The position numbers and the translations under genes were made by a program. This document shows positions 5,894-43,343 of a stretch of 64,000 nt of DNA, in pieces. This stretch comes from Candidatus Woesearchaeota archaeon. Its GTDB lineage: Archaea; Nanobdellota; Nanobdellia; Pacearchaeales; GW2011-AR1. Location: NCBI GenBank assembly GCA_964621025.1, contig CAZUKQ010000003.1, positions 1,991 to 65,990 on the forward strand. Reading direction: 5' to 3'. The stretch's first letter is position 1. The number at the start of each line of letters is the position of its first letter. The notes under the pieces were generated by a model. That model was not told the origin of the DNA and searched no databases. It saw only the letters and a program-made list of their open reading frames with translations.

Positions 5894-6175
5894 TTATTTT
5901 TTTGTCTTCTTTTGTTTTTTAGAAGACTTTTCCTTTCCCAAAATTTCTAATAAAAAATCTAATTTTTCTTCAATTCTCATGAGTCTTCTATGGTCTTTGA
6001 ATCGATTAATTCCTCTAACAATCAAGAATATCCAGTAGACAATTAAAACAACCCCTATTGCCTGTAAAACAGAAATTAGAGGTGCAGCCTTATCCAACAA
6101 AACAGGAAAACCTTGCGTCCAAAAAGAACTTAACAAATCAGAACTGTTCACTGAAGGAATTAAATCTACGGCCAT
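5894..6175 (-). CDS. Small membrane protein with a basic coiled-coil tail, 93 aa (last gene of the LamG operon)
   Basis: It has one strong TM (VLQAIGVVLIVYWIFLIV) followed by RLMRIEEKLDFLLEIL and a K-rich tail. It overlaps the upstream gene by 1 nt. Confidence 0.6.
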   Translation of the reverse strand: MAVDLIPSVNSSDLLSSFWTQGFPVLLDKAAPLISVLQAIGVVLIVYWIFLIVRGINRFKDHRRLMRIEEKLDFLLEILGKEKSSKKQKKTKK

Positions 6176-18894: not shown

Positions 18895-19713
18895 TTATAA
18901 AAATAACGAAAACAAGAAATTAAAGAAAAAGTCATAAAAATAGGCATACAATAAAAATGCAATCATGAAAGCTGGCACGAAAGGTAAACCTTCCTTAATC
19001 AATACCTCTTTCTTTTTTCTTTTTATTAATTCTATCTCTTTCTTAGACAAACCATCGAAATTAGCCTTGAAAACTCGGTTTCCTATTTTCAAATCACTGA
19101 CCAACCAGTCACCTTCTCTCAAAAGTTCACTTTTAACTTTTCTATACATTGCAACTTTTTCTAAGGCCTTAGCATAAACAAATAACAAGGAAAATGCTAA
19201 AACAAAAATAGCTACTATCAAAAATAAAGAATTAAAGAAACCACCAATAGCAAAAACAAAAGCCAAAAGTAAATTATATTTCAATTTCAGTTTTTTTGAT
19301 TCTTTAACAACTTCTTTTTTCATTTTCTTGAAATGAATTATGCCCAAAATTGCCGTATAAGACAGTCCATAAACAGAACCAGCTAAAAATAAGCAGAAGA
19401 TGAAAAAACCTAGATTGAGAAAAGTTAAATTGAAAGTCGCAGCTACAAAAAAAGGCGTCATTGCAAATAAAAGTTTAGCGTCTCCACCTGCAAAAAATCT
19501 ACAATAATAAAGTATATTTGAAAGAGCAAAGAAAACTAAAATAAAAATAAACACCAAAAAGATTTGCTCCGACGTCTTAGCAGAGAAAATCAAATAAACG
19601 CTTCCGGAAACTAGAAGAAACAAGTTCAACCAGTTATCAACCTCTCTTCGTTTAACATCTTGAGCAAAAGCAATCGCCAAACCTGCAAAAAAAAGCCAAA
19701 AAAGGAAGTTCAT
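18895..19713 (-). CDS. Prepilin/preflagellin peptidase (A24 family; PibD/FlaK/EppA-like)
   Basis: Both catalytic aspartate motifs are present: AQDVKRREVDN (D-x-K/R-x-R-x-I/V-P/D type) and FAGGDAKLL (G-x-G-D-x-K-L). It is polytopic and ends with LPFVPAF. Confidence 0.8.
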   Translation of the reverse strand: MNFLFWLFFAGLAIAFAQDVKRREVDNWLNLFLLVSGSVYLIFSAKTSEQIFLVFIFILVFFALSNILYYCRFFAGGDAKLLFAMTPFFVAATFNLTFLNLGFFIFCLFLAGSVYGLSYTAILGIIHFKKMKKEVVKESKKLKLKYNLLLAFVFAIGGFFNSLFLIVAIFVLAFSLLFVYAKALEKVAMYRKVKSELLREGDWLVSDLKIGNRVFKANFDGLSKKEIELIKRKKKEVLIKEGLPFVPAFMIAFLLYAYFYDFFFNFLFSLFL

Positions 19714-24378: not shown

Positions 24379-25524
24379 TTATTGTGTTAGATATTGAGAA
24401 AGAATTTTTGCCATATCTGTCTTTTCCCAAGGGAAATCTCGACCGAAATGACCATAAGAAGCGGTTTGTTTAAATTTAAAATTTCTTAAATTAAATTTGT
24501 CAATTATTGCCTTCGGACTTGCATCAAAATGTTTCATTACAATCTCTGAAATTTTTTCTTCTGAAATTTTATTTGTACCAAAACATTCAACAAAAACAGA
24601 AAGAGGTTTTGAAACTCCAATAGAATAACTTAATTGAACTTCGCATTTTTCTGCCAAATTTGCAGCGACGATATTTTTTGCAATATATCTTGCCATGTAA
24701 GCTGCACTTCTGTCAACTTTCGTTGGGTCTTTTCCAGAGAACGCTCCGCCACCATGTCTTGAATATCCACCATAACTGTCAACAATTATTTTTCTTCCAG
24801 TTAAACCAGTGTCACCTTTTGGTCCACCGACCACAAAACTTCCTGTTGAATTAATAAAGAATTTTGTATTTGCATCTAAGTATTCTTCACAAAGTGGAAA
24901 AAGAATTTTTGTTTGAATTTCTTCTCTTAATTCTTCAATATCTTTAGTCGCTAAATGCTGTTGTGCAACAACTATTGAATCTATTCTTTTAGGTTTTCCG
25001 TCTACATATTCAAAACAAACTTGAGATTTTGAATCTGGACCCAAACCTTCAATCACTTTTTCTTTTCTTGCTTTCGCTAAAAGATATAAAATTTTGTGAG
25101 CATACATTATTGGAATCGGCATCAACTCTTCAGTTTCATTGCAAGCAAAACCAAACATTATTCCTTGGTCTCCTGCTCCTAATTCTTTGTTTGCAGATTC
25201 ATCTACTCCTTGTGCAATTTCTCTGCTTTGTTTATTCAAACTGACCCAAACAGAAACATCTTCAGCCGACATACCATAGGCAATATCTGTGTAACCTACT
25301 TCTTTCAAACAATCTCTAACAATCTTTTCCACATTCACAACTGCCTTAGAAGTTACCTCTCCAGCAACATGAATAGAGCCTAAACTAGCAAAAGTCTCAA
25401 CTGCAACTCTTGAGTTTTGATCCTGTTCAAAATAAGCATCTAAAATAGAATCAGAGATTATATCGCAGAGTTTATCTGGATGTCCTTCTCCCACACTTTC
25501 TGAAGAGAACTTAAAATTTTTCAT
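24379..25524 (-). CDS. metK: S-adenosylmethionine synthetase, bacterial/eukaryotic MetK type
   Basis: FSSESVGEGHPDKLCDIISDSILDA, GAGDQGIMFGFA, GGPKGDTGLTGRKIIVDSYGG and GGGAFSGKDPTKVDRSAAY are MetK signatures. I place the start at MKNFKF (25524). A TATA (TTTTTATAT) lies ~28 nt upstream of that ATG. Confidence 0.9.
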   Translation of the reverse strand: MKNFKFSSESVGEGHPDKLCDIISDSILDAYFEQDQNSRVAVETFASLGSIHVAGEVTSKAVVNVEKIVRDCLKEVGYTDIAYGMSAEDVSVWVSLNKQSREIAQGVDESANKELGAGDQGIMFGFACNETEELMPIPIMYAHKILYLLAKARKEKVIEGLGPDSKSQVCFEYVDGKPKRIDSIVVAQQHLATKDIEELREEIQTKILFPLCEEYLDANTKFFINSTGSFVVGGPKGDTGLTGRKIIVDSYGGYSRHGGGAFSGKDPTKVDRSAAYMARYIAKNIVAANLAEKCEVQLSYSIGVSKPLSVFVECFGTNKISEEKISEIVMKHFDASPKAIIDKFNLRNFKFKQTASYGHFGRDFPWEKTDMAKILSQYLTQ

Positions 25525-25646
25525 AAACCTGGATAGTCTTTTCATATAAAAATCTATCGGCAATTTTATACTGATTGTACAGGAACAACTAAACAACTTG
25601 ATATCCTTAAGGAAAGCTTTATAAATCAATTTTCATCAACAAGAAT

Positions 25647-27598: not shown

Positions 27599-27997
27599 TT
27601 AACTAATCAGAGTCATGTTCTTTCGAGGCTGACCTGCCAGATATAAATAAATCTTAGAAAGATTTTCATTAAAGTAATAATTATCTTTTGTACCTTCAAC
27701 CAAAGCCCTACATAAAATTTCACCCTTAACTAATTCTCCTCCAACAACATTAATCTTCAAACTTTCACCAGCTTTAGGAAAATTTTCTTTTGTTACATTT
27801 GATGCAGGTTGACACCAAGATAGGTTCTTGAGACTCTCTTGAAAAGCAACAACATCCTTATTTATTGAACTTTCATCAATTCCTGTTTTCCCTAAAAAAA
27901 AAGCTACTAAAAAAACAACAATAGCCAATGCAATAACTCCTCCGCTAATCCATAAAAGTTTGGAAAAATTTTTAGTCTGATTATCTATTTCAACCAT
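27599..27997 (-). CDS. Small N-terminally anchored membrane protein, 132 aa (paralog of 60680-61114)
   Basis: TM is LLWISGGVIALAIVVFLVAFFL. The ectodomain aligns with the 144-aa paralog (NLSWCQP...KENFPKAGES...EILCRALV...NYYFNENL versus NVSWCPS...KEDFPSVGEN...QMLCKVLV...QYYFSEDM). It overlaps the upstream pilin gene by 1 nt. Confidence 0.65.
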   Translation of the reverse strand: MVEIDNQTKNFSKLLWISGGVIALAIVVFLVAFFLGKTGIDESSINKDVVAFQESLKNLSWCQPASNVTKENFPKAGESLKINVVGGELVKGEILCRALVEGTKDNYYFNENLSKIYLYLAGQPRKNMTLIS

Positions 27998-29262
27998 TAT
28001 ATCTCTCCCTCTTTACCATAAAATGTTCTAGTATAGCTAAACTCTGGATAAGCACAAGCTTCACGTCCAGTCTGCCAACCCGTAAATCTTACCGTATAAT
28101 ACTTATTCTCCTCTGTTAATTTCATACAGTAATCAGTTCCAATAGAGTGAAGAGGGGGAATTGAAACAACATTACCAAAAGAAGAAAAACTAAGTGAAAG
28201 TTGGGAACAGTTTCCGTATGCCCAAAGTGTTTTTTTTGGACTATCGCCCCAATAAGCTGAATAACTTTCATTTAAATAGTTATAAATTGGTCCTCCAGTA
28301 CCTCGAGTAATACAAACAGAAGAAGAAATACAGTCGGAGTTATTATTCGCTGCTGAAGACGAAAAGACAATTTTTTGGCCAGTTAGATTATCAGTACGAT
28401 TGTATGAAAAAGTTGGCCGTATACCACAACTTTTACCGGGCAACCAACTTTCAAAAGCAATATCATAATATTCTTTCTCTTCTGTGAGTTTTAAACAGAA
28501 ATGATTACCAGCAACATTATACCCAAAACCTCCACCAATAGTATTATAAAAAGACTGAAAATTCAACGTCTTCCAATCACTACAAGAACCATAAGCCCAA
28601 AGTGTTTTTTTTGGACTTCCACCCCAATAATAATCTTGAGAACTCTCTTCTAAAGAATTGTATAGAGGACCACCACTGCCCCTAGCAATACAAACAGAAG
28701 GAGAAATACAATCTACATCTTGCGTCCCAGTTAATTTAACAAAATGTACTGCCCGAGCATATTCTTCAGGTGCAGGAGGAACAACTCCTGGAAGTGGAAC
28801 AATAGGTTGAGCTGCTTCAGGAATACTTTCAGATAATTCAAAGACAACTTCTCCAGAAACATTTTTCAGAGAGTTACTAATAACTGGAGCAATTTCTATT
28901 TTATCCGGTTTTCCTTTTGGAGACCTTACATCATAGGTTAATGTTGTTCCTTTTTTTGGTGCAGGAAGAATATATGAATAAGACTGTCCATCTATAACAA
29001 AGTTGATTTGAATATAATCATAGTCTAAGGAATCTTCCGCACCCCTTGTAACTTGAACCTTCGCAAGTTTAGTAATGTTATCATAAACGGTATATCCTCC
29101 AGAAGTCTCAATAGCCAAAGAGACTTTTTCTGCCGTAGCGGAATTTGCAGCATCCTTAATCATTGGAATAACCGTAGACCAAATAATCGCAACAGCTGCA
29201 ACAGTAATCATTATTATCAAAACAGTCGCTACAACTGCATCAACACCTCTTTTTCCGTACAT
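27997..29262 (-). CDS. Archaeal pilin-N-domain protein (421 aa) with a tandemly duplicated ~115-aa Cys-containing domain
   Basis: The N-terminus MYGKRG|VDAVVATVLIIMITVAAVAIIW matches the archaeal type IV pilin N-terminal (Pilin_N/DUF1628-like) pattern. Residues ~172-290 and ~298-412 are internal repeats (DCIS.SVCI.RG.GGP.YN...SPKKTLWAYG.C...C.KLTEE..YY..F..W...FSY.RT). It has its own TATA (AATATTTATATAATC) ~25 nt upstream. Confidence 0.75.
   Translation of the reverse strand: MYGKRGVDAVVATVLIIMITVAAVAIIWSTVIPMIKDAANSATAEKVSLAIETSGGYTVYDNITKLAKVQVTRGAEDSLDYDYIQINFVIDGQSYSYILPAPKKGTTLTYDVRSPKGKPDKIEIAPVISNSLKNVSGEVVFELSESIPEAAQPIVPLPGVVPPAPEEYARAVHFVKLTGTQDVDCISPSVCIARGSGGPLYNSLEESSQDYYWGGSPKKTLWAYGSCSDWKTLNFQSFYNTIGGGFGYNVAGNHFCLKLTEEKEYYDIAFESWLPGKSCGIRPTFSYNRTDNLTGQKIVFSSSAANNNSDCISSSVCITRGTGGPIYNYLNESYSAYWGDSPKKTLWAYGNCSQLSLSFSSFGNVVSIPPLHSIGTDYCMKLTEENKYYTVRFTGWQTGREACAYPEFSYTRTFYGKEGEI
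28027..28749 (-). repeat. Intragenic tandem duplication (units ~28393-28749 and ~28027-28371)
   Basis: The two protein-level repeat units share nucleotide blocks such as gcccaaagtgttttttttggact near 28220 and 28598. Confidence 0.7.
29098..29262 (-). repeat. Conserved pilin 5' coding block, copy A (copy B at 60487-60645)
   Basis: The encoded peptides are nearly identical (GVDAVVATVLIIMITVAAVAIIWSTVIPMIKD...AEKVSL). The nucleotide differences are mostly synonymous and not base-specific. Confidence 0.8.
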
Positions 29263-29327: not shown

Positions 29328-31202
29328 CTAGTTTCTTACATCTCTATCTCTAATCAACAAAACTAAAACTATAAAGAAAAGAACCAAAACACAAAGTAAA
29401 AGGAATACTAAGAAAAAAGCCCAAGGAGAAGTTTCTCTTGGTTTTTCATTTAAGACCAAGTAATCCAAAGTTTCATTTCCGCCTTGAAGAAGAACATAGC
29501 CTGTTCCAGAAGTTTTAGGAGAATCATCGTTATCATCATCTTCATCACTGGAAACATCTATCTTGAAGTTAACATATTTTGAATCGTTGTTCCCATAATT
29601 ATCTGAACAGAAAACAGTTAGAACATAATTTCCATTTGAAAGGCCATCCTCATCCGCAACAAAATAATTTCCTGAAGTCAAGAAAGTTTTATTCACACCA
29701 TTATTCAAGTTATAATAACAAGAACCTGATTCGTTTAAAGAAACATTCACTTTGATATTTCTAACATCATAAGTTTTATCTATTGGAGAATGAATAGTTA
29801 TAACTGGGGCATTTGTATCATTTATCGAAGACAAATTAACAATAAAATTAACTGAGTTATTTACTGTGTTAGTTCCGTTTGAAACAAAGACCGTTAAATT
29901 GTTAGTTCCATTCACAGCAGAAATTGTTGTATTCGCACATTGAGTTAGAATCACATTCACACCATTAAGAGAATACCAACAAGAAGTTGCGGTTCCGTTT
30001 ATTGTGTAATTCAAGGGAATAACTGAAATATTGTAAGTTATATTTTGTGGACTGATTACATTAACTGATAAATTAGTTAAGTTAGTTTGGTTTGTTTGAT
30101 TATTTGACGTAAAATTCAAAACACTAACTAAAAAATTTCCATTCGCAACATTAGCGGAAGAGTCTGTAGCATTACAATTCACAGTATGATTCCCCACTGC
30201 AAATACACTTCCATTTTGAGGAGAACAAACTAGAGGAACAAATCCATCGACATTATCGCTCGCATTCATATTAAAATAATAAACAACAGCTCCTGAAGAG
30301 TTAGTTGCATTAACTGAAATGTTTCTCAAATTTAAAAATGGAGCAGTTGTATCTGTAATAGAACAAGATTGACTTAAAACAGGACTTCCACCAATACATC
30401 CACTAGGTGAAGAAGAATTAACTGTTCTTGTTTGAGTTCCAGCAATACAAGCTGACCAGGGATTATAAATAAAAGAAGTACATGTTGTTGGAAAGGTATT
30501 GTTAACAATTGTAATTAAAGAGGTCTTATTTTGATTATTTGAACTTAAACATTTAACATCATCAGAAACAGAAACAACTTCAAGAGTATAATTTCCAGAA
30601 TTAAGTGCAATAGTAAATGTTTGTTCAGAATTTCCGGAAAAGGGCAAATTAACAACCTTCGTTTGATTTAAAGAACCATTAACCTTTAGTAATAAAGTAA
30701 CATTCACAGAATATTGCGAAGCAATTTGAGATGGAACAAAATTTAATCCGCCAGCATGATTTATCGGTGCAGCTACATTTGTTTTAACTGTTACGACATT
30801 AGAAACATTTGTTACAATTAGGTTAGTTAACGTAGAAGTACAAACATCTTTTCTTGTTAAATAATCACTAACAGCGTCGACTCTCTTGTCTCCGTTAAGA
30901 TCTTCATAGCCTGTTGAAGTTCTTTCATAAGGAATGTATCCTTCTTTGAAAATAAACAAACCATAATTGGTATTTTGCCCACTGTTTGGATAAGCTATAT
31001 CTAAAAATGAGTTTGAACCTGAATTAGAATTAACAAATTGAACCTGCCCAGAAGAACAGTCTGAATTAGAACAACTGAAGCCTAAAACTCCAACCTGATT
31101 TATTGGTGAATTATTGTAAACAAAGTTATTTACTTGTAATAAATCTGCCGATACGAAAGTTAGAGAAAATAATAAGGCTAAAACAAAAAATAGATTTTTC
31201 AT
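29328..31202 (-). CDS. Sequon-rich surface protein (624 aa) with an HYR-like domain, a TSP1-like motif and a C-terminal TM anchor
   Basis: It has a Sec signal (MKNLFFVLALLFSLTFVSA). The HYR-like segment DTTAPFL...GAVVYYFNMNASDNVDGFVPLVCSPQNGSVFAVGNHTVNCNATDSSANVANGNFLVSV lies at ~30117-30361. It is preceded by WSACIAGTQTRTV...C.GG.......C. An acidic stretch and the TM WAFFLVFLLLCVLVLFFIVLVLLI follow. There are many N-x-S/T sequons. Confidence 0.7.
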   Translation of the reverse strand: MKNLFFVLALLFSLTFVSADLLQVNNFVYNNSPINQVGVLGFSCSNSDCSSGQVQFVNSNSGSNSFLDIAYPNSGQNTNYGLFIFKEGYIPYERTSTGYEDLNGDKRVDAVSDYLTRKDVCTSTLTNLIVTNVSNVVTVKTNVAAPINHAGGLNFVPSQIASQYSVNVTLLLKVNGSLNQTKVVNLPFSGNSEQTFTIALNSGNYTLEVVSVSDDVKCLSSNNQNKTSLITIVNNTFPTTCTSFIYNPWSACIAGTQTRTVNSSSPSGCIGGSPVLSQSCSITDTTAPFLNLRNISVNATNSSGAVVYYFNMNASDNVDGFVPLVCSPQNGSVFAVGNHTVNCNATDSSANVANGNFLVSVLNFTSNNQTNQTNLTNLSVNVISPQNITYNISVIPLNYTINGTATSCWYSLNGVNVILTQCANTTISAVNGTNNLTVFVSNGTNTVNNSVNFIVNLSSINDTNAPVITIHSPIDKTYDVRNIKVNVSLNESGSCYYNLNNGVNKTFLTSGNYFVADEDGLSNGNYVLTVFCSDNYGNNDSKYVNFKIDVSSDEDDDNDDSPKTSGTGYVLLQGGNETLDYLVLNEKPRETSPWAFFLVFLLLCVLVLFFIVLVLLIRDRDVRN

Positions 31203-31203
31203 T

Positions 31204-33120
31204 TTATAATCCTCCTCCTGAACCAGAACTTCCGAATGAACCTACTCCGCCTGGCGAACCTGAAGAACTCCAACTCCAACTTCCACCTTCAGAATTTCCT
31301 TCTTTTCCACCATTTCCATCAGAATGAATTTTACTTAAAACTCCTGCATCTAATAAAACAGCCATTAAGGATTCTAATGTTGCACCCGTTTGACCTTTGT
31401 TAATCAAAACTTTTTCTCCAGCTTCATTTCTAACTTCAACATATTTTCCGTCGAAAGGAGCTTCGTGTAGAACAACATTTCCGCCGAATCTCATAATAGT
31501 ACTTGCTAATTCATAGGTTTCCATAGAAACTTTTCCTTTATTTTTGAAAGCCCAATTTTCAAATCTTTGTGAAGCATCTAATGGAACTGCGAATGCAAAA
31601 TTTCCAACATCAACGGTTGAGTTAACTAAAGTTTTTGCTCCACCGCCAATTACATCATAAACAACTTTGTCTGCTAATCCTCCTAAAACTAAATCTGCTC
31701 CGTCTACAGCACCTTTTACTATTGATTGTGCTCCGTCATAAACGCTCATTATTGAACCTAAAATAAAATTATCTTGATTTCTTTCTTTTACTGTGTGTTT
31801 CTGTAGGCCCCATCTTCCACCACTAACAAATCCTAAAACAGAATCAACTGGAGAAACTAACGCTTTTCCAAGACCATATACTCTTGATTTTTCCTTTCCA
31901 GCATAGCCTAAATTTTTTGTATCTAAAACTGCTTCAGTCAAATCTTTTCCTTCATTTTTCAAAGCTCGTCCAAAATAAATTGGACTCGCTGAAACTTTAT
32001 CATCTAAAGAATCTCCATTTGTATCTCTAAAATTAAGATTTCTAAAATCAACGTGCATTCTGTAAAGTCCATTTGTTCCAACAGGTTTTATCTGTGCATC
32101 GGCGACTTTTTTAACATTAGAATAAACAACTTCAGCAGGTGCAGGTTCGGCAACAAAAACATCTTCTGCATCAGAAGGTTCTGAATCATCCGGCATTACT
32201 AATGGATTTGAATCATAAAATTTTCTAAGTTGTTCAGGTGTTGGTCCACCCTTTAAATTTGAAGATACTGATTTTTTAATTCCAGTATAGCATAGCGAAG
32301 CTTTTGGACTTTCTAATTTTGGATAAAGAACTGAATCAGGAAAAGAACCTATCTTTTTACTAGCAACTACCTTAGTAGAATGAGCACTTGAAACTTTTTT
32401 ATCTCCTGAGCAACCAAAACCAAGAGCACCAATCATTAGAGAGGCTGCAAGACCTGTTGCAAGAACATTTCTCCAGTTTCTATGATATTTTGCTTCTAAA
32501 CATAAATCTAATGCAGTTCTATACGTCTGAGTCAACTCTTCTCCTTGTTTTTTGTTCTTTTCTTCTAAAGCTTTAATTTGATCGTTTCTAGTTCTTTGAG
32601 TAATATCTAACTCGTCTCTTTGTTTTGTTACGACAGTCAACAAACTTTCGGAGGTATTCAACTTTTTTGTTAAGTCTTGTACTTTAGGTTCTAATTTTTT
32701 CTCAACTTTTACTGCTCCTTCCTTTAAACCTCTAACATAATTTCCTACAACTTCACTTCTAAAAGCACCATCATTAGCAGCATTTTTACTTTTTGTAGTA
32801 TTCAGATAAACATTTGTAGATATCACTTTTTCTAAGCTTGTAAAATAACGAGAATTATCTAAACCTAAAAGATCGACTACTGCAGCTATTCTTCCTTCAT
32901 AAGTATCTACTCTTTTTCCTCTGAATGTTCTCGCTCCACCAGTACCCGATTCGTTTCTATAAGAACCGTCCATGATAGAATAGACTAAATCTGCTTTTCT
33001 CTTTGCCGTAGAAGGATGTTCTAAAAATTGATATCCTAACTCTTGTCCAACAGATGTTCCTTCTAGGAATTTTTTGTATCTTTCAAGATTTCTTTTATAA
33101 GTCTGATTTTTTTGTGCCAT
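31204..33120 (-). CDS. Bitopic membrane protein (638 aa): cytoplasmic N-domain with coiled coil, one TM, ectodomain, Gly/Ser-rich C-terminus
   Basis: It has no N-terminal signal. A heptad-rich region lies at ~150-205, followed by the TM VLATGLAASLMIGALGFG then CSG. The C-terminal tail is GGSWSWSSSGSPGGVGSFGSSGSGGGL. A 1-nt gap separates it from the downstream gene. Confidence 0.65.
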   Translation of the reverse strand: MAQKNQTYKRNLERYKKFLEGTSVGQELGYQFLEHPSTAKRKADLVYSIMDGSYRNESGTGGARTFRGKRVDTYEGRIAAVVDLLGLDNSRYFTSLEKVISTNVYLNTTKSKNAANDGAFRSEVVGNYVRGLKEGAVKVEKKLEPKVQDLTKKLNTSESLLTVVTKQRDELDITQRTRNDQIKALEEKNKKQGEELTQTYRTALDLCLEAKYHRNWRNVLATGLAASLMIGALGFGCSGDKKVSSAHSTKVVASKKIGSFPDSVLYPKLESPKASLCYTGIKKSVSSNLKGGPTPEQLRKFYDSNPLVMPDDSEPSDAEDVFVAEPAPAEVVYSNVKKVADAQIKPVGTNGLYRMHVDFRNLNFRDTNGDSLDDKVSASPIYFGRALKNEGKDLTEAVLDTKNLGYAGKEKSRVYGLGKALVSPVDSVLGFVSGGRWGLQKHTVKERNQDNFILGSIMSVYDGAQSIVKGAVDGADLVLGGLADKVVYDVIGGGAKTLVNSTVDVGNFAFAVPLDASQRFENWAFKNKGKVSMETYELASTIMRFGGNVVLHEAPFDGKYVEVRNEAGEKVLINKGQTGATLESLMAVLLDAGVLSKIHSDGNGGKEGNSEGGSWSWSSSGSPGGVGSFGSSGSGGGL

Positions 33121-33222
33121 TTGTGTTATTCTTAAGTGATAACTAAAATAAAAAAGACTATATAAACTTTACTAAAGTGTTACAATTATGAAAGGACAAC
33201 AAAAACAGAAAGAAAATTAAAA

Positions 33223-36200
33223 TTAAGGACTTGTTACAGAAACTGGAACAGAATTAATTTTAACATTTGAGGACTCAGTTGTTTCATCAAACATATCTGA
33301 AATAGAAACAATCTCAGTATTCAATTTATCAGAAATATCATCACAATATTCGACACCTTGATAAACAAGAGAATTACTGTTATCATCACAAAAAGATACT
33401 AACCTTTTCCAGATAGCTGCGAAATCCGAAGAAACATCTTTAGAATAAGTTATATCTCCTAAGGAAATTGTTGCTATCTCTTTTCCATTTAAAGAAAGAA
33501 ACGCGTCTTCCTTGATGATATATCCTTCCGAAGACTCTTGCTCTTCAAAATAATATTTAAGTTTCTGTCCATTTTCATATAAGAAACCTCTTTTTTTAAG
33601 TAGATTACTAGATAACTTATTTTCTTTTATCTCGAATTTGTTTTCAACTGGCATAGAAGTAGAAGAGGAAGTATCTTCCAAACGAGGAATCTTCAAGCTT
33701 CCTGCCGGAACCAAAGCATTAGGATTTGCTAAAAAAGATTTGGTGAATATTTCAGGATTTAATGCCTTAACTTCATTTGAGTTTACTCCCCATTTTTTAG
33801 ATATTTCTGCTAACGTCTTTGAACCATCGGAGATTATAGTATCATAACCAACAACTTCTGCCATGACTGTAGAAACACCAGGTGTTGGTTTAGCTGCAAC
33901 CTGGACTGTTTCAACTTTAATTGCCTTCACAACATTCAAATGGAAAATTGTTTTTAGGTATAACGCATTTGCAAGTTGATTATTTGATGCACCACTTCCG
34001 TCAATAATTTCACTTAATCCGGCCACAATAGCTGAAGAGTCACTATCTTTCTTCCAAGCTTTTATTTCATCCCCTAACTTAACTAGCTTAGTAGCAACAG
34101 TAGCATAGCTTTCTTTTGTGTTTGATTCTAAATTGGTTGTAGCTTTTTCTGCATCAGATAAAGTAATTCCTTCAATAGCATCCACTCTTGAAACAGTTTC
34201 ATTAACACTCTTTGTATCTAACCAGCAAAGCATCTTTTCATTTCCACAATTACCTACTTGTTTCCATCTATCTGGATTAGTTGTTTTTCCAGGATTAGTT
34301 GTTGCACAAACTCTTACAATTCCATTTAATGAAACATCAGGGTTAACTGCACCTTGTGCTCCTGCCTGAAGATTTGGACTTGTTGCAAAAGCAAGAACTG
34401 AAGGACTTCCAGAAATACATTCTTTTTCCGAAGCAACATCTGTTTGTTTTGCTTGATCAGCAACATATTTGTCTGTCAAATAATTTGCCGCCATTGAAGT
34501 TGAAACTGTTTTGAATCCACATTCAGTCTTCGCATTAATCATTACACAAAGTTCTTTGTAACCTGAAGGGGCTGTAAAGTCAATAGCCTCATCTGCAGAT
34601 TCTCCCTTAGTCACATAGCCAGTTTTCACAGTAACAATTGGATTAGAATGGTAATACGCAGAATCTGGGGGATTCTGTAAATAAACAGAATATCTCACTC
34701 CCTGATCATTTCCTGCAAATATGTGGTAATACACTTTGTATTGTGAAGTTGAAGGTAAAGTAGCATCGCTGAAAACAGATTCATCGAAATTAGCATAGAA
34801 CTGATATGGACTTTCTGGTGCCAACAAACCGTCCGCTAAATCTGCTCCACCAGGAACCGAAGTTCCTAAATTAGCTCTACAGAATTCACTTCCTACCTCT
34901 TGAATATTTTTAAACTTAAATGCGTTAAAAGAATTTTGAGCATAACTATTTTTGAAATAATCAATACTTCCTTGCATATTTTCCCAAGAAGATTTAACCG
35001 ACATGTATTCTGCTCCTCCTCTTGCTGCCTTCTGACCACTAGCCATCTCGAACATTGTTGGAACTAAACTGCTAGCAATTGGCGCAATCTGATTCCAGAA
35101 GAACTCACATTTGTAAACGGAAGTAATCTCATCACAAATTCCGACATTTTTTCCACTATCAAGATTTTCTTGCAAACAAGCTTTCTCAGATTTAAGAATA
35201 GATAAATAAGTTTCCAAACCTGCGTGAACTCCTGTTAAACAAATTGGAACATAAATTCCTTCTCTAGCATTTGGTAAACACAATAATAAACTTCCAATAA
35301 TTCCACTCTGTATAACATTTGAAACAGGATATTTTCCTCCAAGATTACATCTAGAAGGTGGACAGATTACTGGATCACAAACATTGAATAAAGTCTTACA
35401 TTGTGTTGGAGACATAAATTGATAGCAACCTAAACCATCGTCGCTAGCTGAAGCTAAAATAGAACCAAATTTCTGTCCGTTGATTATAACTTCCGTCTTA
35501 CCATATTGATTTGCTGCTTCCTGTATTGCTCTCTGTGCCCTGTTCTTTAGATTTGTAACTTCTGACCTAGTCATTCCATAACAACCACCAAATTCATCAA
35601 CCGCATTATTCTCATAGAAAGTTTGACAGATGTCATCACCCAAACCATTTTCCTCTAAACCATTTGGACCAATATTACAAACTGTGTAAGTTGAAACTGC
35701 TCCTGAAGCTTGATACGCATTAGTATTAGAAGATAAAATTCCTCCGCCTGCTTGGGAAACTTTTACAAACCATCCTTTCTTTTCGTCGAAAGGAACTAAG
35801 GAAGGAAGATACTTATCAACACCAACAGTGTAGTATTTTACAACAGGACTATTTTTGTAAGGATTCTCACAAGATGAATTAACAAATCTTATACTTCCAA
35901 TATCTGTTGCGTCCCTAATTTGTGCAGTTAGGTCTTTATCAGCAGTAGTAGATGTTTTGCCAACTAAATTTTCAGGATTGACAACGCCATCTGCACTAAC
36001 CGCATAAACTTGTTTAGCAACAAATCTATTTGAAGCAGCGGATTCATTTTCTATAACTACATAATACTTCTGATTAGCCGAACCAGATACAACCTGGACT
36101 TGTTGATTTGGTCCAATAGCTATTCCTGCTGCCTTAAGTTTTGTTGCAGCTTCACTAACTGCAGTACCTTGTCTAAGAGTTCTTAGTTGTGTTGAACTAG

Positions 36201-38910
36201 TAAGAGGAACAATTCCCCGATCATCTTCTTCTTTCAAAGTACTATATTCTTTAGCTGCAGAATCCAAAGTAGTCATCTGTGCAATCGCTTGTTCTTTTAA
36301 CTTAGCATCTCCTTTAGCTTCTTGGTCTTTCCAGAATAAATATTCTTTAATTTGCTCAGTAGTCATGTCTTTCGCGCTAGCAGGTAAACTGGCACTATAC
36401 TCTGAAATTAAATTATTTTTTAACAATGTCTGGTTAATAGTTTTACCGTCGCTCATCATAGAATTCTTTTCAATTGCCTTTGCTTTTTCGTTGAAAGCGC
36501 CTACACTAGCTGTTCCCGTTTTAACAGCATCATCAATCTGTGTTGACATAGCATTGTAACATTCAGATAAAGTTGAGTAAGTTCTTTGTGCAACTTTTTC
36601 TTGACAAATCAACTTGTATTTTTCCATAACATTTTTTCTTGCAATTGATTCTCCACTTAAACCAGAAGCAAAATTACTCATCACCATAAATGCAGAAGTT
36701 GCAAAACAAGCTCCTTTCCAGGCAGTAACTAATTTTCCAAGTTTGTCAACTCTCTCTTGCCAATCATTAATTGACTTATTCAAATTTTTAATCATCTCTT
36801 CAGTCTTAGCAGGAGAAAGCTCTATACTTCTCTTTTCAATCCCAATATTAAATGTAAAGTTTGCTTCTGTCTTTGTGTTATCTACTCTTGGAAGAATAGA
36901 AACCGAAACTTCTTCTTCGACATTTATATCTCTAACATAAACAGTCACGCCACCAAGAACTTCCGAGTTCTTTTCACTTGTACTGTCGCCGTAAAGTCTT
37001 ACAGACTTGTTTGAATATTTTCCTTTAACATTGTCCGCAAAAGTCAAATCAACATAAGTAGGAGTAATTTTTTTTACTAAAATGAAAGGACAATTTGAAA
37101 TATTTGTCTTCACAGCACCACTCACACAAATTTCATCACCCTCTCCAACCCCGTCTTTAATATTGAAGTCAACATTTTTTATGTCTGAAGTTACTGGCTT
37201 GAATTCTTCAGCAAGAATATAAGAGTACTTATTATTAACATAAACTCCTTTTCCTGCATTAGTAATATCAAATTTTCCTAAAACTTCTATCTGAGTTTCG
37301 GCACTTCTTGCCTCTAAACTTGCAGGATATTTTTCAATAAGCATTTCCAAAGCTTCTCTCTGGCTTTTATACTGCCCTAGCTCTCCAGCAGCCCTAGCAT
37401 ATTCTACCAAAGCTTTCTTCGCATATTCTGAACCTGCTAAATCTTGTTCATTGCTAAATTTATCTAAAGCACTCTCCCACGCCTCTTTTGCTGCAGTAAA
37501 GTTTCCTTGAACATTTACTTGACCTTCTAGTGATTTATCTTCTTTTGTCGACGCTAATCCTTCAAAACCATTTTCTCCCTTCAGAACTACTTTAACACTT
37601 TCTTTTTTTCCAAGCTTACTAATTAACTTATCCTTGAAATCCTCAAAAGTAAATTTTGTAGCAGAAGTTCCTAACAAATTAACTGCACTAACTGCTCTTG
37701 CTAAATATTTTGCATCTAGTTCTTTATCTGATTTAACTAATATTGCGAACTCTGTCTCTTTATCTTTTGGTATTATTTTAGAAGATAAATTTCCAACATA
37801 AGCCAAATACCAATCTTCTTTTGCAACAGCTCCTTTCTCAATCAACTTTCCAACTTCCTTTGTTTCTCCATTAAATAATGCGCCCCATCTTGATAAAATT
37901 AAATTGAAAGTACTGCTACCAGGACAATAAATTGAAACACTTCCAGTTCCATCAGCAGAAGGAATTAAACTCTTAACTTGGCATTTACCGTTCAGGAATT
38001 TTGTTCCTTTTGTTGCCCAAACTACTTCATCTCCAACGGACAATTTAACTTTATCAACTGCTGCATCTAAAGCATTTAATCTAACTTGCAAACCGGCATT
38101 ACAATATAAACCGGGAAAGAACACTTCATTTGAAGTCTCTCCTTTTTTCAAGTTAACTTTTTGTAATAATCTACTTTCATCAGTATAAAGACCAATTTCT
38201 GCTGTTTCTCCATCAGTAGATAAAAGCCTAGCATAACCTTTTCCATTCCAGAAACCATAACTTTTATATTCTTCACTCCAGTTCTCATCAGAGATAAGGG
38301 GTAATAAGAATTCTGCTTGACCAACACCAAAAGCTTCTTCAGCATCATATCTTATAGTTGCCGTCAAATTACCTTTAACTAACTCAGGCATATCTTTTTC
38401 TGCAGGAGTTCTCTTCAAGATTATAACCACATAACCAATATTATTCAATAAAGGACTTCCCAATAAATTTTCTCTAGTATTAACTGCAGCTCTTGCAGGA
38501 TGAAAACTTATTCCTGCTACGTTTGAAGGATAATCTCCTTTAAAGCTAATAGATTCGATTGAAGAAACTTTAATTAAAGGATTAACTTGTAATGCATCTA
38601 ACTGACAGAAAACTGGGACATTTTGTTCTTCCAATAAGTCACTTCTAACGACAGTAGGAGTACAACCTAACGGAGGAATAGCAACAAGAAAATCGTTTGA
38701 AGCCTGGCACTGTCCATTTTTCATGCTATCTAAAATAGGCCAGTAGGTACTAATCTGCTCTGAAGAATAATAATTACTGAAAGAAGGTTGGTAATATTGA
38801 CTTGTTCCCACACCGTTTGTTTGCCCTGCAAAATTATTTGAAGCAGCGAATGCAAAATTAACAAATAAGACAAATCCTAAAAAACCCAAAATCCACATTA
38901 TTTTTTTCAT
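33223..38910 (-). CDS. Giant secreted orphan protein (1895 aa) with a Cys-rich hydrophobic core and a C-terminal LysM-like segment
   Basis: It has a Sec signal (MKKIMWILGFLGFVLFVNFAFA|A). I recognise no catalytic or adhesin motif over most of its length. A Cys-dense region (CDPVICPPSRCNLGG...ICLTGVHAG...CEFFW) is encoded at ~35080-35440. A LysM-like GYDTIISDGSKTLAEISKKWGVNSNEVKALNP...AGSLKIP is encoded at ~33685-33855. Its ATG overlaps the upstream stop (ATGA at 38907-38910). Confidence 0.8.
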   Translation of the reverse strand: MKKIMWILGFLGFVLFVNFAFAASNNFAGQTNGVGTSQYYQPSFSNYYSSEQISTYWPILDSMKNGQCQASNDFLVAIPPLGCTPTVVRSDLLEEQNVPVFCQLDALQVNPLIKVSSIESISFKGDYPSNVAGISFHPARAAVNTRENLLGSPLLNNIGYVVIILKRTPAEKDMPELVKGNLTATIRYDAEEAFGVGQAEFLLPLISDENWSEEYKSYGFWNGKGYARLLSTDGETAEIGLYTDESRLLQKVNLKKGETSNEVFFPGLYCNAGLQVRLNALDAAVDKVKLSVGDEVVWATKGTKFLNGKCQVKSLIPSADGTGSVSIYCPGSSTFNLILSRWGALFNGETKEVGKLIEKGAVAKEDWYLAYVGNLSSKIIPKDKETEFAILVKSDKELDAKYLARAVSAVNLLGTSATKFTFEDFKDKLISKLGKKESVKVVLKGENGFEGLASTKEDKSLEGQVNVQGNFTAAKEAWESALDKFSNEQDLAGSEYAKKALVEYARAAGELGQYKSQREALEMLIEKYPASLEARSAETQIEVLGKFDITNAGKGVYVNNKYSYILAEEFKPVTSDIKNVDFNIKDGVGEGDEICVSGAVKTNISNCPFILVKKITPTYVDLTFADNVKGKYSNKSVRLYGDSTSEKNSEVLGGVTVYVRDINVEEEVSVSILPRVDNTKTEANFTFNIGIEKRSIELSPAKTEEMIKNLNKSINDWQERVDKLGKLVTAWKGACFATSAFMVMSNFASGLSGESIARKNVMEKYKLICQEKVAQRTYSTLSECYNAMSTQIDDAVKTGTASVGAFNEKAKAIEKNSMMSDGKTINQTLLKNNLISEYSASLPASAKDMTTEQIKEYLFWKDQEAKGDAKLKEQAIAQMTTLDSAAKEYSTLKEEDDRGIVPLTSSTQLRTLRQGTAVSEAATKLKAAGIAIGPNQQVQVVSGSANQKYYVVIENESAASNRFVAKQVYAVSADGVVNPENLVGKTSTTADKDLTAQIRDATDIGSIRFVNSSCENPYKNSPVVKYYTVGVDKYLPSLVPFDEKKGWFVKVSQAGGGILSSNTNAYQASGAVSTYTVCNIGPNGLEENGLGDDICQTFYENNAVDEFGGCYGMTRSEVTNLKNRAQRAIQEAANQYGKTEVIINGQKFGSILASASDDGLGCYQFMSPTQCKTLFNVCDPVICPPSRCNLGGKYPVSNVIQSGIIGSLLLCLPNAREGIYVPICLTGVHAGLETYLSILKSEKACLQENLDSGKNVGICDEITSVYKCEFFWNQIAPIASSLVPTMFEMASGQKAARGGAEYMSVKSSWENMQGSIDYFKNSYAQNSFNAFKFKNIQEVGSEFCRANLGTSVPGGADLADGLLAPESPYQFYANFDESVFSDATLPSTSQYKVYYHIFAGNDQGVRYSVYLQNPPDSAYYHSNPIVTVKTGYVTKGESADEAIDFTAPSGYKELCVMINAKTECGFKTVSTSMAANYLTDKYVADQAKQTDVASEKECISGSPSVLAFATSPNLQAGAQGAVNPDVSLNGIVRVCATTNPGKTTNPDRWKQVGNCGNEKMLCWLDTKSVNETVSRVDAIEGITLSDAEKATTNLESNTKESYATVATKLVKLGDEIKAWKKDSDSSAIVAGLSEIIDGSGASNNQLANALYLKTIFHLNVVKAIKVETVQVAAKPTPGVSTVMAEVVGYDTIISDGSKTLAEISKKWGVNSNEVKALNPEIFTKSFLANPNALVPAGSLKIPRLEDTSSSTSMPVENKFEIKENKLSSNLLKKRGFLYENGQKLKYYFEEQESSEGYIIKEDAFLSLNGKEIATISLGDITYSKDVSSDFAAIWKRLVSFCDDNSNSLVYQGVEYCDDISDKLNTEIVSISDMFDETTESSNVKINSVPVSVTSP

Positions 38911-40754
38911 TTTGCAAACTCCAAATAGATTGTGGCATCTTCAACCTGCGTATAAACTGATTGTAATTCCTCAATGCTCTTCGGCGTTGGGAACAAAGGC
39001 ACATTAATATTTAATTCTTTTGACTCTTCTAACTGTCCTTGAGTGATATATTCTTCAGTTTTTCCCCCGCCTACTACTGCGGAATCAACACTTGTCGAAG
39101 GAAGATTTACATCAAAACATTTTTCTTCTTCTAATCCGAATAAAGCACCAGCACCTGAAACTGGAACAGTTACACATTTTCTATCATTACTTCCAGGGAA
39201 AGTTAAACTAGAATTTCTATAAACATAAACACTCACATTGTAATAGCTTTCAACAAGTTGAACCTTTTTTGTGTCTGGATAGAAAATTGTAGCAGAATAA
39301 TCATCTGAAGAAAAGCTAACAAGAGCTGAGTCAACAGTACCTAAATCTAAGCTTACATTAAATAATTTTTTCAAAACAACGGAAGTTTCTATCTCTGAAT
39401 TTGTTGAAACTTGCTTTTTAGCTTCGGCATATCCCTCTGCAGTTGCTAAAATAAATCCATTAACACATTGAGGAACTCCTCCATTGAAAGTAGCATCACC
39501 ACTTTCCAAACTAGTAGAACCAATATCACATTGCGAATTCAAACATTTAAATCTTAATTTTGATTCGACAGGATTCAAATCTAAATCGTAAGTTGAGATT
39601 TTCATTTCTTGATTTTTATACTTGCAAACTTCGGACTCAATTGATTCAGGCGTTCCACCATAAATTGCTTCTCTTGCCTGATTTTTACTTACAATTACTG
39701 AAACAGGAAATTGGAACAACTCATCGTTATCATAAAACTGAATCAAAACCGGAAAGTCAATATCATAAACGAAATGATAAGGAACATAACAGAATCCTAA
39801 AATTCCCATTCCTGCTTGCAGGCCCATAGGTTTAGCAACTTCATCGCCATAAATCTCAATTGTTGTTGGCCAAGTTGGAGAATAGATAAAGTTCACTTGT
39901 TCATCTACATTTTGTCCAATATCTGTTATAAAATATTTATTTGCTTTATCTGAAAGAGTATAGTAATTTCCTTTTAATCTTAAGTTAGCAACATTTGCAG
40001 AAAGGGCACTGACCAAATCTTCTTTTATTGTTTGCTTTACAAAAACTTTTGGAGCGCAACCAAGTTCCGTTCCATCAACAGGAGCATATAATCTCATAAC
40101 ATCCACAGCATAATTTTCTAAAAATGAAGTAGTCATTTCATGTTCAAAAACATCTGACGCCAAATTATAGAACTTACCTAGCTTGCTACTAACTGAAAAC
40201 TCTTGTGTATTTACCGTTGCTGTTTGTTCTTCGAAATCTATTCTAAAAGGACTGTCTATCAAAACATCAACTGTTCCTTCATTAATTTGTAATTGAACAC
40301 TTCCTTTTTCAAAATAAACATCATATCCTTGCGCATAATATTCAGAGAAATCACAATTGTCTAAATTTTCTTCCAAATATCTTTCCAATTCATTTTCCAT
40401 AGAAGACAAAGTTGGTTTTTGTTTTGCTAAAATATTATTTCCAGAAACATACATCCAATAAGGAACTGGCTGACCAAAAAAGTCTAGTTGCGAAGAGAAA
40501 GGCATGTAAGAACTTCCAGGAACAAACTCTAAATCGTTCACATAGATATAACCTGCTTGTTCTCCCAGCAATGAAATTCCTTGTCGTGTATGTTGTTCTA
40601 AACAAGATTGATAGTATTCATAAACTGGTTGCATATTTTTTGGTAAAGAAGAAACATTTGAAGGTCTCAAAAGAAAATATGCTATTACTCCGCCGACGAT
40701 TAAAATTGCTAAAATAATAAAAATTGTTACTTGACCTTTCCTCTTTTTCACCAT
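38907..40754 (-). CDS. Large protein (615 aa) with a prepilin-type (class III) N-terminus; first gene of the cluster
   Basis: The N-terminus MVKKRKG|QVTIFIILAILIVGGVIAYFLL has a K-G-Q cleavage-type motif. The ectodomain is unrecognised. An A/T-rich TATA block lies at 40775-40796. Confidence 0.7.
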   Translation of the reverse strand: MVKKRKGQVTIFIILAILIVGGVIAYFLLRPSNVSSLPKNMQPVYEYYQSCLEQHTRQGISLLGEQAGYIYVNDLEFVPGSSYMPFSSQLDFFGQPVPYWMYVSGNNILAKQKPTLSSMENELERYLEENLDNCDFSEYYAQGYDVYFEKGSVQLQINEGTVDVLIDSPFRIDFEEQTATVNTQEFSVSSKLGKFYNLASDVFEHEMTTSFLENYAVDVMRLYAPVDGTELGCAPKVFVKQTIKEDLVSALSANVANLRLKGNYYTLSDKANKYFITDIGQNVDEQVNFIYSPTWPTTIEIYGDEVAKPMGLQAGMGILGFCYVPYHFVYDIDFPVLIQFYDNDELFQFPVSVIVSKNQAREAIYGGTPESIESEVCKYKNQEMKISTYDLDLNPVESKLRFKCLNSQCDIGSTSLESGDATFNGGVPQCVNGFILATAEGYAEAKKQVSTNSEIETSVVLKKLFNVSLDLGTVDSALVSFSSDDYSATIFYPDTKKVQLVESYYNVSVYVYRNSSLTFPGSNDRKCVTVPVSGAGALFGLEEEKCFDVNLPSTSVDSAVVGGGKTEEYITQGQLEESKELNINVPLFPTPKSIEELQSVYTQVEDATIYLEFAK

Positions 40755-40796: not shown

Positions 40797-40838
40797 CAAT
40801 ATAACCGTTGATATTTGTCTTTCTTTGAGAGACTTACT

Positions 40839-40911
40839 GATCCCATGGTCTAGTGGTTATGACGCTTCCTTGACGTGGAAGAGATCCCCAGTTCAAACCT
40901 GGGTGGGATCA
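40839..40911 (+). tRNA. tRNA-Val (GAC)
   Basis: GATCCCA-TG-GTCT-AGTGGTTAT-GAC-G-CTTCC-TTGACGT-GGAAG-AGATC-CCCAG-TTCAAAC-CTGGG-TGGGATC-A. Confidence 0.9.
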
Positions 40912-41178
40912 TTTTTTCTTTCCGCCTTTCACCTGTCCCCAATTATCCTCAACAAATTCTACATTCAAACTTTCAACATCAATCTTCGCCAGATGTAACA
41001 TTTCATCAAACAAAACCTTTGGGAGCAATCTTCTTTCAGTATAATAATTCTTCAGAGCAGAATACCTCATTGAAAATCCGAATTGTAAAAGTCCTCGAAT
41101 TGAAGGCGAAGAAAGATTCAATCTAACTAAATCTAAGAATTCTTTCTGCTTGCCTTTTCTAAACTTAACACGGACCAT
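40909..41178 (-). CDS. Hypothetical small protein, 89 aa
   Basis: ORF with basic termini and no recognisable motif. Its 3' end overlaps the last 3 nt of tRNA-Val. Confidence 0.4.
   Translation of the reverse strand: MVRVKFRKGKQKEFLDLVRLNLSSPSIRGLLQFGFSMRYSALKNYYTERRLLPKVLFDEMLHLAKIDVESLNVEFVEDNWGQVKGGKKK
40912..40917 (+). terminator. Oligo-T tract immediately after tRNA-Val
   Basis: TTTTTT starts 1 nt after the discriminator base. Oligo-T is the usual archaeal termination signal. Confidence 0.4.
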
Positions 41179-43247: not shown

Positions 43248-43343
43248 GCCTGCATAGCTCAGTTGTTAGAGCACGAGTTTTGTATATACTCAACTTTATA
43301 TCAAAAAAACTCGGGGTCGGGGGTTAGAATCCCTCTGCAGGCT
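43248..43343 (+). tRNA. tRNA-Thr (TGT) with a 23-nt intron at the canonical 37/38 position (~43285-43307)
   Basis: GCCTGCA-TA-GCTC-AGTTGTTA-GAGC-A-CGAGT-TTTGTA[intron TATACTCAACTTTATATCAAAAA]A-ACTCG-GGGTC-GGGGG-TTAGAAT-CCCTC-TGCAGGC-T. The intron contains ACTC, which can re-pair with exon GAGT as expected for a bulge-helix-bulge substrate. Confidence 0.8.

Follow-up and report, generated by a model that had tools for sequence, protein, structure and literature searches.

A giant Sec-signal-bearing archaeal protein with a conserved cysteine-rich body and an exchangeable C-terminal tail that very probably carries a divergent LysM module

What would an archaeon do with a secreted protein of 1895 residues to which the domain databases assign almost nothing? 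The question is raised by a gene on contig CAZUKQ010000003.1 of a Candidatus Woesearchaeota archaeon (assembly GCA_964621025.1), within a stretch of 64,000 nucleotides (positions 1,991 to 65,990 of the forward strand) that we will call the window. With a GC content of 34% and genes for TFIIB, S3Ae (a ribosomal protein), and a prepilin peptidase of archaeal type, the window is archaeal. Here, we will use "the giant" for both the gene, an open reading frame (ORF) on the minus strand at 33223..38910, and its product of 1895 amino acids plus a stop codon. A preliminary description of this DNA had pointed out the ORF, a clean Sec signal, and some 1600 residues without an assignable motif. All three observations have held up; Pfam and NCBIfam return nothing over ~1650 residues except weak matches to TPR_6, TPR_14, and TIGR02795 (YbgF) at residues 468-540. 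The same description called the protein an orphan, which it is not. The answer that we favor, with moderate confidence and on sequence evidence, is that the giant and a membrane-anchored partner form a surface apparatus in which an exchangeable tail sets the target on another cell, and that the giant of this archaeon would be a binding-only variant directed toward a glycan containing N-acetylglucosamine (GlcNAc), most plausibly bacterial murein.

In a word-indexed comparison with 5.8 billion proteins, the giant had 698 or more matches. The best 120 of these all had E = 0, with identities of 37-69% and lengths of 1,646-2,970 residues, and their source names were those of Pacearchaeota, Nanoarchaeota, or simply "archaeon" metagenome-assembled genomes. 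When residues 640-1660 were compared exhaustively by HMMER with 1.84 billion cluster representatives (protein clusters at the 50% identity level), 1,158 clusters were found at E ≤ 1e-3, 924 of them at E ≤ 1e-30. A scan of the GTDB species genomes gave 456 loci of the family; the best 80 were mostly labeled Woesearchaeota, Pacearchaeota, or Nanoarchaeota, most others were named only "archaeon", and three were otherwise labeled (Omnitrophota, Paceibacterota, and Parvarchaeum) and look like mis-binned contigs. We take the giant to be one of a large family of secreted, disulfide-rich proteins specific to these three groups of tiny symbiotic archaea, which are counted among the DPANN. It is solely the tail, from residue ~1683 to the end, that has no detectable relative when searched by itself.

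Contigs with the giant gene occur in bins named Omnitrophota bacterium (L026, JAHITY010000143.1), Paceibacterota bacterium (L057, DAOTCN010000002.1), and Methanococcoides sp. SA1 (P0096). These contigs are probably mis-binned or mislabeled; alternatively, a physical association of the archaea with such organisms could have brought the DNA into the same bins.

All of the best 120 homologues cover residues ~50-1650 of the giant, and coverage collapses beyond residue ~1660. The nature of this boundary is best seen in the homologue P0124, whose core is 97% identical to the giant up to the string ...AAKPTPGVST, with no detectable similarity beyond it. On the contig of P0124 (L006; 93.6% nucleotide identity), the alignment with the window ends at 33867. 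It picks up again three bases beyond the stop codon, at 33220, and continues at 91% identity into the next gene. For the more distant locus L007 (73-79% nucleotide identity), similarity is likewise lost at 33867 and returns at 33226. The replaced unit can therefore be placed at 33226-33866. The tails are, moreover, mosaics, since P0124 and a further homologue, P0001, have the first 121 tail residues in common and then diverge. BLAST sorts the 120 family tails into 61 unrelated clusters (48 of them singletons) and the 73 complete tails from the GTDB loci into 32; the giant's own tail, searched alone (residues 1660-1895) against the 5.8 billion proteins, matched nothing at E ≤ 0.01.

A foreign origin of the cassette was considered on the basis of composition and rejected, as the GC content at third codon positions is 0.216 in the cassette versus 0.208 in the core, with no anomaly. 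Scanning the junctions for repeats or recombination sites gave only short chance matches in AT-rich DNA. Two further observations concern the tails of relatives. In L007 (16103-16399), and also in L008 and L009, an extra gene of 98 codons with a hydrophobic N-terminal stretch lies inside the swapped region, between the giant's stop codon and a 637-residue gene. Its product may be an accessory or immunity-like protein passed on together with the tail type of the P0001 lineage; the window does not have this gene. The second-largest tail class (19 of the 120 homologues, including P0028, P0033, P0038, P0051, and P0118) has a common C-terminal module, ...YFIYVGDSKSDYYLFEK...GGYDVYEF...GHIDQYYIF..., without a Pfam match.

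What, then, does the tail of the giant itself contain? The preliminary description had singled out a string at residues 1686-1742 (nucleotides 33685-33855) as a LysM-like module with an extended final loop. At the level of profiles this view stands: in all likelihood the segment is a LysM of divergent sequence that has such a loop. TIGR02899 (SafA-type LysM) matches residues 1699-1742 with E = 1.2e-4 and 22 bits when the segment is isolated and with E = 0.031 in the whole protein, far below the curated cutoff of 67.85 bits. A hidden Markov model (HMM) built from nine LysM domains of solved structures, run over 239 family proteins (~460,000 residues), ranks the segment first, ahead of P0004 and P0124, and none of 2000 shuffled tails reached its score. 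An hhalign comparison with the profile of the same nine domains spans 39 columns (probability 95%, E = 3.6e-8) and requires one insertion of six residues in the segment (FTKSFL); once this is deleted in silico, the segment reaches 21.1 bits with PF01476, above the gathering score of 20.9. The homologue P0004 carries a LysM that passes Pfam (22.0 bits) at the same tail position, and the otherwise unrelated tail of P0124 ends in a weaker one. The separate profile tests of the giant's own segment converge on the same 44-45 residues. Single-sequence searches of the PDB with the segment were non-significant (E 1.2-2.9); because the bona fide LysM of P0004 is equally weak there, such searches lack power and should not be counted as evidence against a LysM.

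Compared with known LysM domains (PF01476; the nearest is the SafA/ExsA spore-coat subtype TIGR02899, PDB 7r1l), the segment aligns over helix 1, helix 2, and the last strand and shows the pattern TL..I..K.GV....(I/V)...NP...NPN.(I/L).(P/V)G..(I/L).IP. It differs in the FTKSFL insertion in the loop before the last strand, in a native form that stays below the Pfam threshold, and in a degenerate first strand and GD motif (YDTIISDGSKT versus YTVKKGDT). LysM is a known companion of peptidoglycan hydrolases. Tails with a LysM are rare in this family (3 of 239 proteins; 1 of the 73 GTDB tails). A tentative module that follows, named NG..TG after its motif, is found by iterative search in 30-41 of 233 tails and in 10 of the 73 GTDB tails, and the giant matched it at E = 0.0025 before entering the model. 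The last ~70 residues are unique to the giant and contain one pair of cysteines (1841 and 1856).

A large family of the transglycosylase type was reportedly first noted by Rinke in 2013 and Castelle in 2015. Castelle et al. (2021) define fam00969 as a family specific to Pacearchaeota and Woesearchaeota, extracellular and 1,650-3,000 residues long, and propose that its members attach to or degrade bacterial cell walls (PMC8204110); Vigneron et al. (2022) use "large lytic murein transglycosylase" for the same kind of protein (PMC9723730). The giant's family is very probably this one, since its homologues carry SLT, SleB-type, or amidase tails and the descriptions match; the equation is made with the papers' descriptions, not with fam00969 sequences. 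Among the 120 closest homologues, 13 have PF01464 (SLT); others have PF07486 (SleB-type hydrolase), or PF01520 (amidase) together with PF04748. The giant shares the taxonomic range and size class, is homologous to the Pacearchaeota and Woesearchaeota giants over the long body (residues ~1-1660), and has a core that matches, at E = 0, SLT carriers to which NCBI gives the name "transglycosylase SLT domain-containing protein".

It also appears to be extracellular. Its N-terminus reads MKKIMWILGFLGFVLFVNFAFA, then AS, a Sec-like signal with a predicted cleavage after FAFA. Taking the usual transmembrane threshold, a Kyte–Doolittle (KD) mean of 1.6 over 19 residues, the signal region (2.27) is the only transmembrane-grade stretch in the whole giant, and the parity of the cysteines, discussed below, is concordant with an extracytoplasmic site. 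The difference from the published family lies at the other end: the giant has no Pfam match to SLT/GH23 (PF01464). With SLT present in just 13 of 120 homologues by Pfam, one of dozens of alternative tails, it should therefore be treated as a variable tail module rather than as a family-defining feature. The conserved body, its invariant cysteines, the partner gene, and the strain-level exchange of cassettes were not found in the passages of these papers that were examined.

The body shows the opposite behavior to the tail. In an alignment of 121 sequences, 30 core cysteines are essentially invariant (27 in all 121, and three in 114-120), out of 34 in the whole giant. They are densest at positions 1162, 1171, 1178, 1183, 1188, 1211, 1224, 1245, 1259, and 1268, that is, ten rather than the "about a dozen" first reported for this segment, which is otherwise real. 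The core has an even number of cysteines in 115 of the 121 sequences, as do 78 of 85 cysteine-containing tails, and a lineage-specific pair (C595/C607) is present in six of six sequences as both residues, never one alone. Such parity is predicted by disulfide bonding and not by metal ligation; thus, the sequences support a disulfide-stabilized body, as the preliminary description had supposed. Metal clusters were considered as another reading of the cysteine motifs and rejected, since no known ferredoxin-type spacing is present and parity favors disulfides.

The same description had spoken of a hydrophobic, membrane-interacting core, and here one should be more careful. Hydrophobic stretches are indeed present in the cysteine-dense region, but their highest 19-residue KD mean is 1.39, below transmembrane grade, so that "hydrophobic core" was an overstatement and a transmembrane or membrane-inserting region is unsupported. 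Conformational insertion into a membrane is possible. AlphaFold2, with a 42-sequence alignment, was run in two pieces, residues 1-920 and residues 900-1895. In the second piece (mean pLDDT, the predicted local distance difference test, of 63), residues 1150-1300 are modeled as helices at pLDDT 50-69; residues ~1264-1363 fall below 50, and a well-modeled beta domain follows at ~1370-1470. The cysteine region is thus not the ordinary beta-sandwich repeat whose appearance would have spoken against the original view, at a pLDDT too low to describe surfaces. In the first piece (mean pLDDT 74.8), residues 70-400 are modeled as beta-rich domains, residues 465-546 as TPR-like helices, residues 553-692 as another beta domain, and residues 700-897 as long helices.

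Foldseek relates the TPR-like region to the YbgF TPR domain 2xev (probability 0.90). Otherwise, comparison of both halves with the PDB and of the C-terminal half with BFVD gave nothing at E ≤ 1e-3, only generic Ig-like sandwiches and one TPR; a sequence search of the PDB with the whole protein returned noise only, and a family profile of 1,796 positions found no relative among PDB sequences. A PHROGs search with the giant and four neighbors gave no match. Given these results with Foldseek, the PDB family profile, and PHROGs, the body is, as far as sequences and models go, a structurally uncharacterized set of folds.

The giant does not come alone. Immediately upstream, on the same strand, lies the gene of the partner, whose TGA stop codon overlaps the giant's ATG start (ATGA) in the window and whose product has an N-terminal membrane anchor with a KD mean of 3.04. 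A partner gene in this position and on this strand is found in 66 of 66 GTDB loci with enough flank and in all other loci examined. The partner is better conserved than the giant (54-75% identity among loci); its homologues number more than 2,270, and not one of them has a Pfam domain or carries an informative name. The pair is flanked by S3Ae and NDK on one side and TFIIB on the other, with TFIIB within 6 kb in 47 of the 80 GTDB loci; because this housekeeping neighborhood is conserved, the locus should be seen as part of the core genome and not as a mobile element.

How might these parts work together? We suggest that the giant is secreted through its Sec signal, leaving a disulfide-rich body of ~1650 residues after the signal, and that the partner, as the gene linkage suggests, holds the giant at the archaeal membrane once the signal has been cleaved. 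The body would serve as a rigid, disulfide-locked scaffold or machine, its activity unassigned, and the tail would decide what the giant binds or cuts on a neighboring cell. In other members the tails would be peptidoglycan hydrolases (SLT/GH23, SleB-type, or amidase); the giant of this archaeon would be a binding-only variant, with a divergent LysM bearing a loop insertion, then the NG..TG module, and then the unique end of ~70 residues. Its likeliest role would be to attach the archaeon to a host or prey cell by way of a glycan with GlcNAc, in all probability bacterial murein, and the swapping of cassettes would shift the target specificity between strains. Recognition of a partner cell wall, as first suggested for the LysM-like string, fits the SLT, SleB-type, and amidase tails of other members, and attachment to or degradation of bacterial walls by the family has already been proposed (PMC8204110, PMC9723730, PMC12352652).

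Several observations weigh against this explanation and should be kept in mind. The native segment, when searched with PF01476 as the preliminary description recommended, gives no match even in isolation at E ≤ 10. Residues 1667-1895 are modeled at pLDDT 25-33 with almost no secondary structure, which is expected given an alignment without depth in the tail, and the betaalphaalphabeta fold of a LysM is accordingly unconfirmed. LysM domains also bind chitin and other GlcNAc polymers (PMC12352652), and the ligand is therefore not fixed. More than 80% of the homologues' tails have no recognizable peptidoglycan-related domain, so that murein targeting may hold for a subset only. Lastly, the ~1650-residue body has no structural or profile relative in the PDB, BFVD, Pfam, or PHROGs.

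The alternative that survives best takes the giant for a polymorphic effector, that is, a weapon whose body is a delivery or translocation device, whose cassette is the payload, and which is released to harm bacteria in competition or predation with no stable attachment, its cysteine-rich helices inserting into a membrane. We consider it unlikely. The likeness to polymorphic toxins of the CDI (contact-dependent inhibition) and Rhs type is real: in both, a long conserved N-terminal body and a short junction motif are followed by unrelated C-terminal modules swapped between close strains at a fixed breakpoint. In the giant's family the junction after the conserved linker PTPGVST is sharp and reused (33867 in L006 as in L007), cassettes are replaced between near-identical strains, as between the giant and P0124, and the tails are mosaic and highly diverse. 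Lytic enzymes do occur among the tails of the homologues, but the giant's own tail (LysM-like, NG..TG, unique end) appears to be a binding module, neither toxin nor enzyme. The extra 98-codon gene of L007-L009, between the giant and the next gene, could be immunity-like, but the window has no such gene: an intergenic stretch of ~100 nucleotides follows the stop codon, and the gene beyond it is still 91% identical in L006 despite the swap. A "vampiristic" or antibacterial lifestyle has been described for these archaea (PMC12352652 and PMC9723730), although the only locus found is a syntenic core-genome locus with an obligate anchored partner, which points to a cell-associated protein, and the cysteine region lacks transmembrane-grade hydrophobicity. 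In contrast to the known toxins, the giant is unrelated to CdiA, Rhs, MafB, and their like in a Pfam scan, and it is archaeal, Sec-secreted, and provided with a dedicated membrane-anchored partner.

A second analogy can be drawn with phage receptor-binding and tail-fiber proteins, in which a conserved proximal part ends in a recombining distal tip that sets the target and that can carry murein hydrolases. The giant differs from these in having no PHROG match and no BFVD structural match, and in its conserved chromosomal housekeeping context.

Could the pair instead be a structural part of the DPANN envelope, such as an S-layer-like or spike component, with an exposed tail that is driven to vary by viruses or by the need to tell self from non-self, and with peptidoglycan-related modules as occasional add-ons? 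This seems to us quite improbable. The pair is widespread in these lineages at a conserved core-genome locus, with an anchored partner and a disulfide-locked body; its neighbors are also surface proteins (an HYR/Ig glycoprotein, a pilin-like protein, a lectin-domain giant, and a prepilin peptidase), and hypervariable exposed termini are typical targets in viral arms races. S-layer proteins, however, usually evolve fast, whereas the giant's core keeps ~40% identity and its 30 essentially invariant cysteines lineage-wide. No lattice-forming or known S-layer domain was found by Pfam or Foldseek, and it is difficult to see why the tails of an archaeon that has no murein should repeatedly carry murein-specific enzymes and LysM. 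Least probable of all is a proposal that concerns the module only and is compatible with all three readings of the whole protein, namely that the likeness to LysM arose by chance in a fast-evolving, possibly disordered tail that binds no glycan; the failure of the native segment in Pfam, the non-significant PDB matches, the low pLDDT, and the tail's lack of homologues would agree with it, but it is opposed by the TIGR02899 match, the first rank in the HMM search, the hhalign and shuffling results, the recovery of PF01476 once the loop is deleted, and the LysM domains of P0004 and P0124, the former being just as weak in the PDB search, while low pLDDT is expected of a tail without alignment depth.

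The features of the locus are collected in Table 1.

Table 1. Position of the giant, its parts, and adjacent genes in the window
Feature	Coordinates	Strand	Basis
Giant gene	33223..38910	-	ORF list and translation; at least 698 homologues
Sec-type signal peptide, residues 1-22, predicted cleavage between FAFA and A	38845..38910	-	Sequence; sole segment with KD ≥ 1.6; model helix 2-16
Family-wide core, residues 23 to ~1660, 30 essentially invariant Cys	33931..38844	-	Homologue coverage; Cys invariance and parity
Most conserved N-terminal beta-rich block, residues 51-200, invariant Cys 68, 83, 102	38311..38760	-	66-70% mean identity to the giant over 120 homologues; AlphaFold2 beta strands
TPR-like helical hairpins, residues ~465-546	37273..37518	-	Weak TPR_6/TPR_14 and TIGR02795 (YbgF); model helices; Foldseek
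Cys-dense segment, residues 1158-1277, 10 invariant Cys including C-x4-C-x4-C (CDPVICPPSRC)	35080..35439	-	10 Cys in 121/121; helices in model; maximum KD 1.39
Swappable tail cassette, residues ~1683-1895 (~213 residues)	33226..33866	-	L006/L007 breakpoints; P0124; tail-only search
Divergent LysM-like module (very probable), residues ~1688-1742, six-residue insertion FTKSFL before last strand	33685..33849	-	TIGR02899; hhalign; LysM HMM; loop deletion
Family-specific NG..TG tail module (tentative), residues ~1778-1825	33436..33579	-	Iterative HMM on family tails
Partner gene, 615 residues, N-terminal membrane anchor, 10 Cys	38907..40754	-	ATGA overlap; transmembrane helix at residues 11-29; linkage
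Downstream 638-residue protein, one transmembrane helix (residues 219-237)	31204..33120	-	Only close relatives L005-L009; 1/80 GTDB loci
Downstream 624-residue surface glycoprotein-like protein: signal peptide, HYR/Ig-like domains, many N-x-S/T sequons, C-terminal transmembrane anchor	29328..31202	-	Pfam HYR E = 4e-8; hydrophobicity; lineage-specific

The intergenic stretch past the giant's stop codon (33121-33222) contains T-runs that are possibly terminator-like and a TTTATATA box ~55 nucleotides upstream of the ATG of the 638-residue protein's gene; together they suggest a bicistronic unit of partner and giant, with a separate promoter for the downstream gene.

Elsewhere in the window, a second giant ORF of 2476 codons (7206-14636, minus strand) encodes six Laminin_G_3/ConA-like lectin domains (PF13385, E = 1e-138), with an N-terminal signal or transmembrane segment and a C-terminal transmembrane helix. 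It is followed, with an overlap of four nucleotides, by a 344-codon ORF without a Pfam match (6175-7209, minus strand), and a related Laminin_G_3 protein of 2468 residues lies downstream of the giant's homologue in L008. A 421-residue protein (27997-29262, minus strand) has an archaeal class III (type IV pilin-like) signal peptide and an internally duplicated cysteine-containing module (CISPSVCIARGSGGPLYN... and CISSSVCITRGTGGPIYN...); the gene of the prepilin peptidase (PF01478) lies at 18895-19713, and that of a KaiC-like ATPase at 14961-15776.

An S-adenosylmethionine synthetase (24379-25629, minus strand) matches S-AdoMet_synt_N/M/C (PF00438, PF02772, and PF02773), families of the MetK type of bacteria and eukaryotes rather than of archaeal MAT, in keeping with reports of bacterial-like gene content in DPANN archaea. 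A 96-nucleotide tRNA at 43248-43343 (plus strand), probably an intron-containing archaeal tRNA, was found by Rfam and missed by ARAGORN, and a tRNA-Val at 40838-40912 (plus strand) was found by ARAGORN and is absent from the Rfam scan at gathering thresholds.

We know of no host for any member of the Pacearchaeota or Woesearchaeota. For the attachment of these ultrasmall archaea to their partners, the giant's family is among the few candidates that are lineage-wide and clearly extracellular. Both the family and the broad notion that it attaches to bacterial walls have been published before, and the giant is a further tail variant of an uncharacterized family. The literature has so far treated these proteins as a big transglycosylase, whereas this analysis suggests that the transglycosylase is one interchangeable tip on a far more conserved two-gene apparatus. 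Four points were not found in the passages of the literature that were examined: SLT is one of many tips, swaps take place at a fixed junction between near-identical strains, 30 paired cysteines are essentially invariant, and an anchored partner is obligatory. With them, studies of how DPANN archaea interact with hosts gain a more concrete object in this family; the repertoire of tails may be usable as a read-out of host range, and the LysM and SLT tips could be expressed as probes for the target glycan. A bolder proposal, to which we give a low probability, is that the partner and the body form a DPANN-specific host-interaction machine, unrelated to anything in the structural and family databases, in which cassettes (LysM, SLT, amidase, and dozens of unassigned modules) switch the range of hosts or prey in the manner of phage receptor-binding tips, and the cysteine-rich helical core performs a conserved step, such as penetration of the envelope or the bridging of two cells. 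If that were true, a major archaeal radiation would regularly have bacteria as its hosts.

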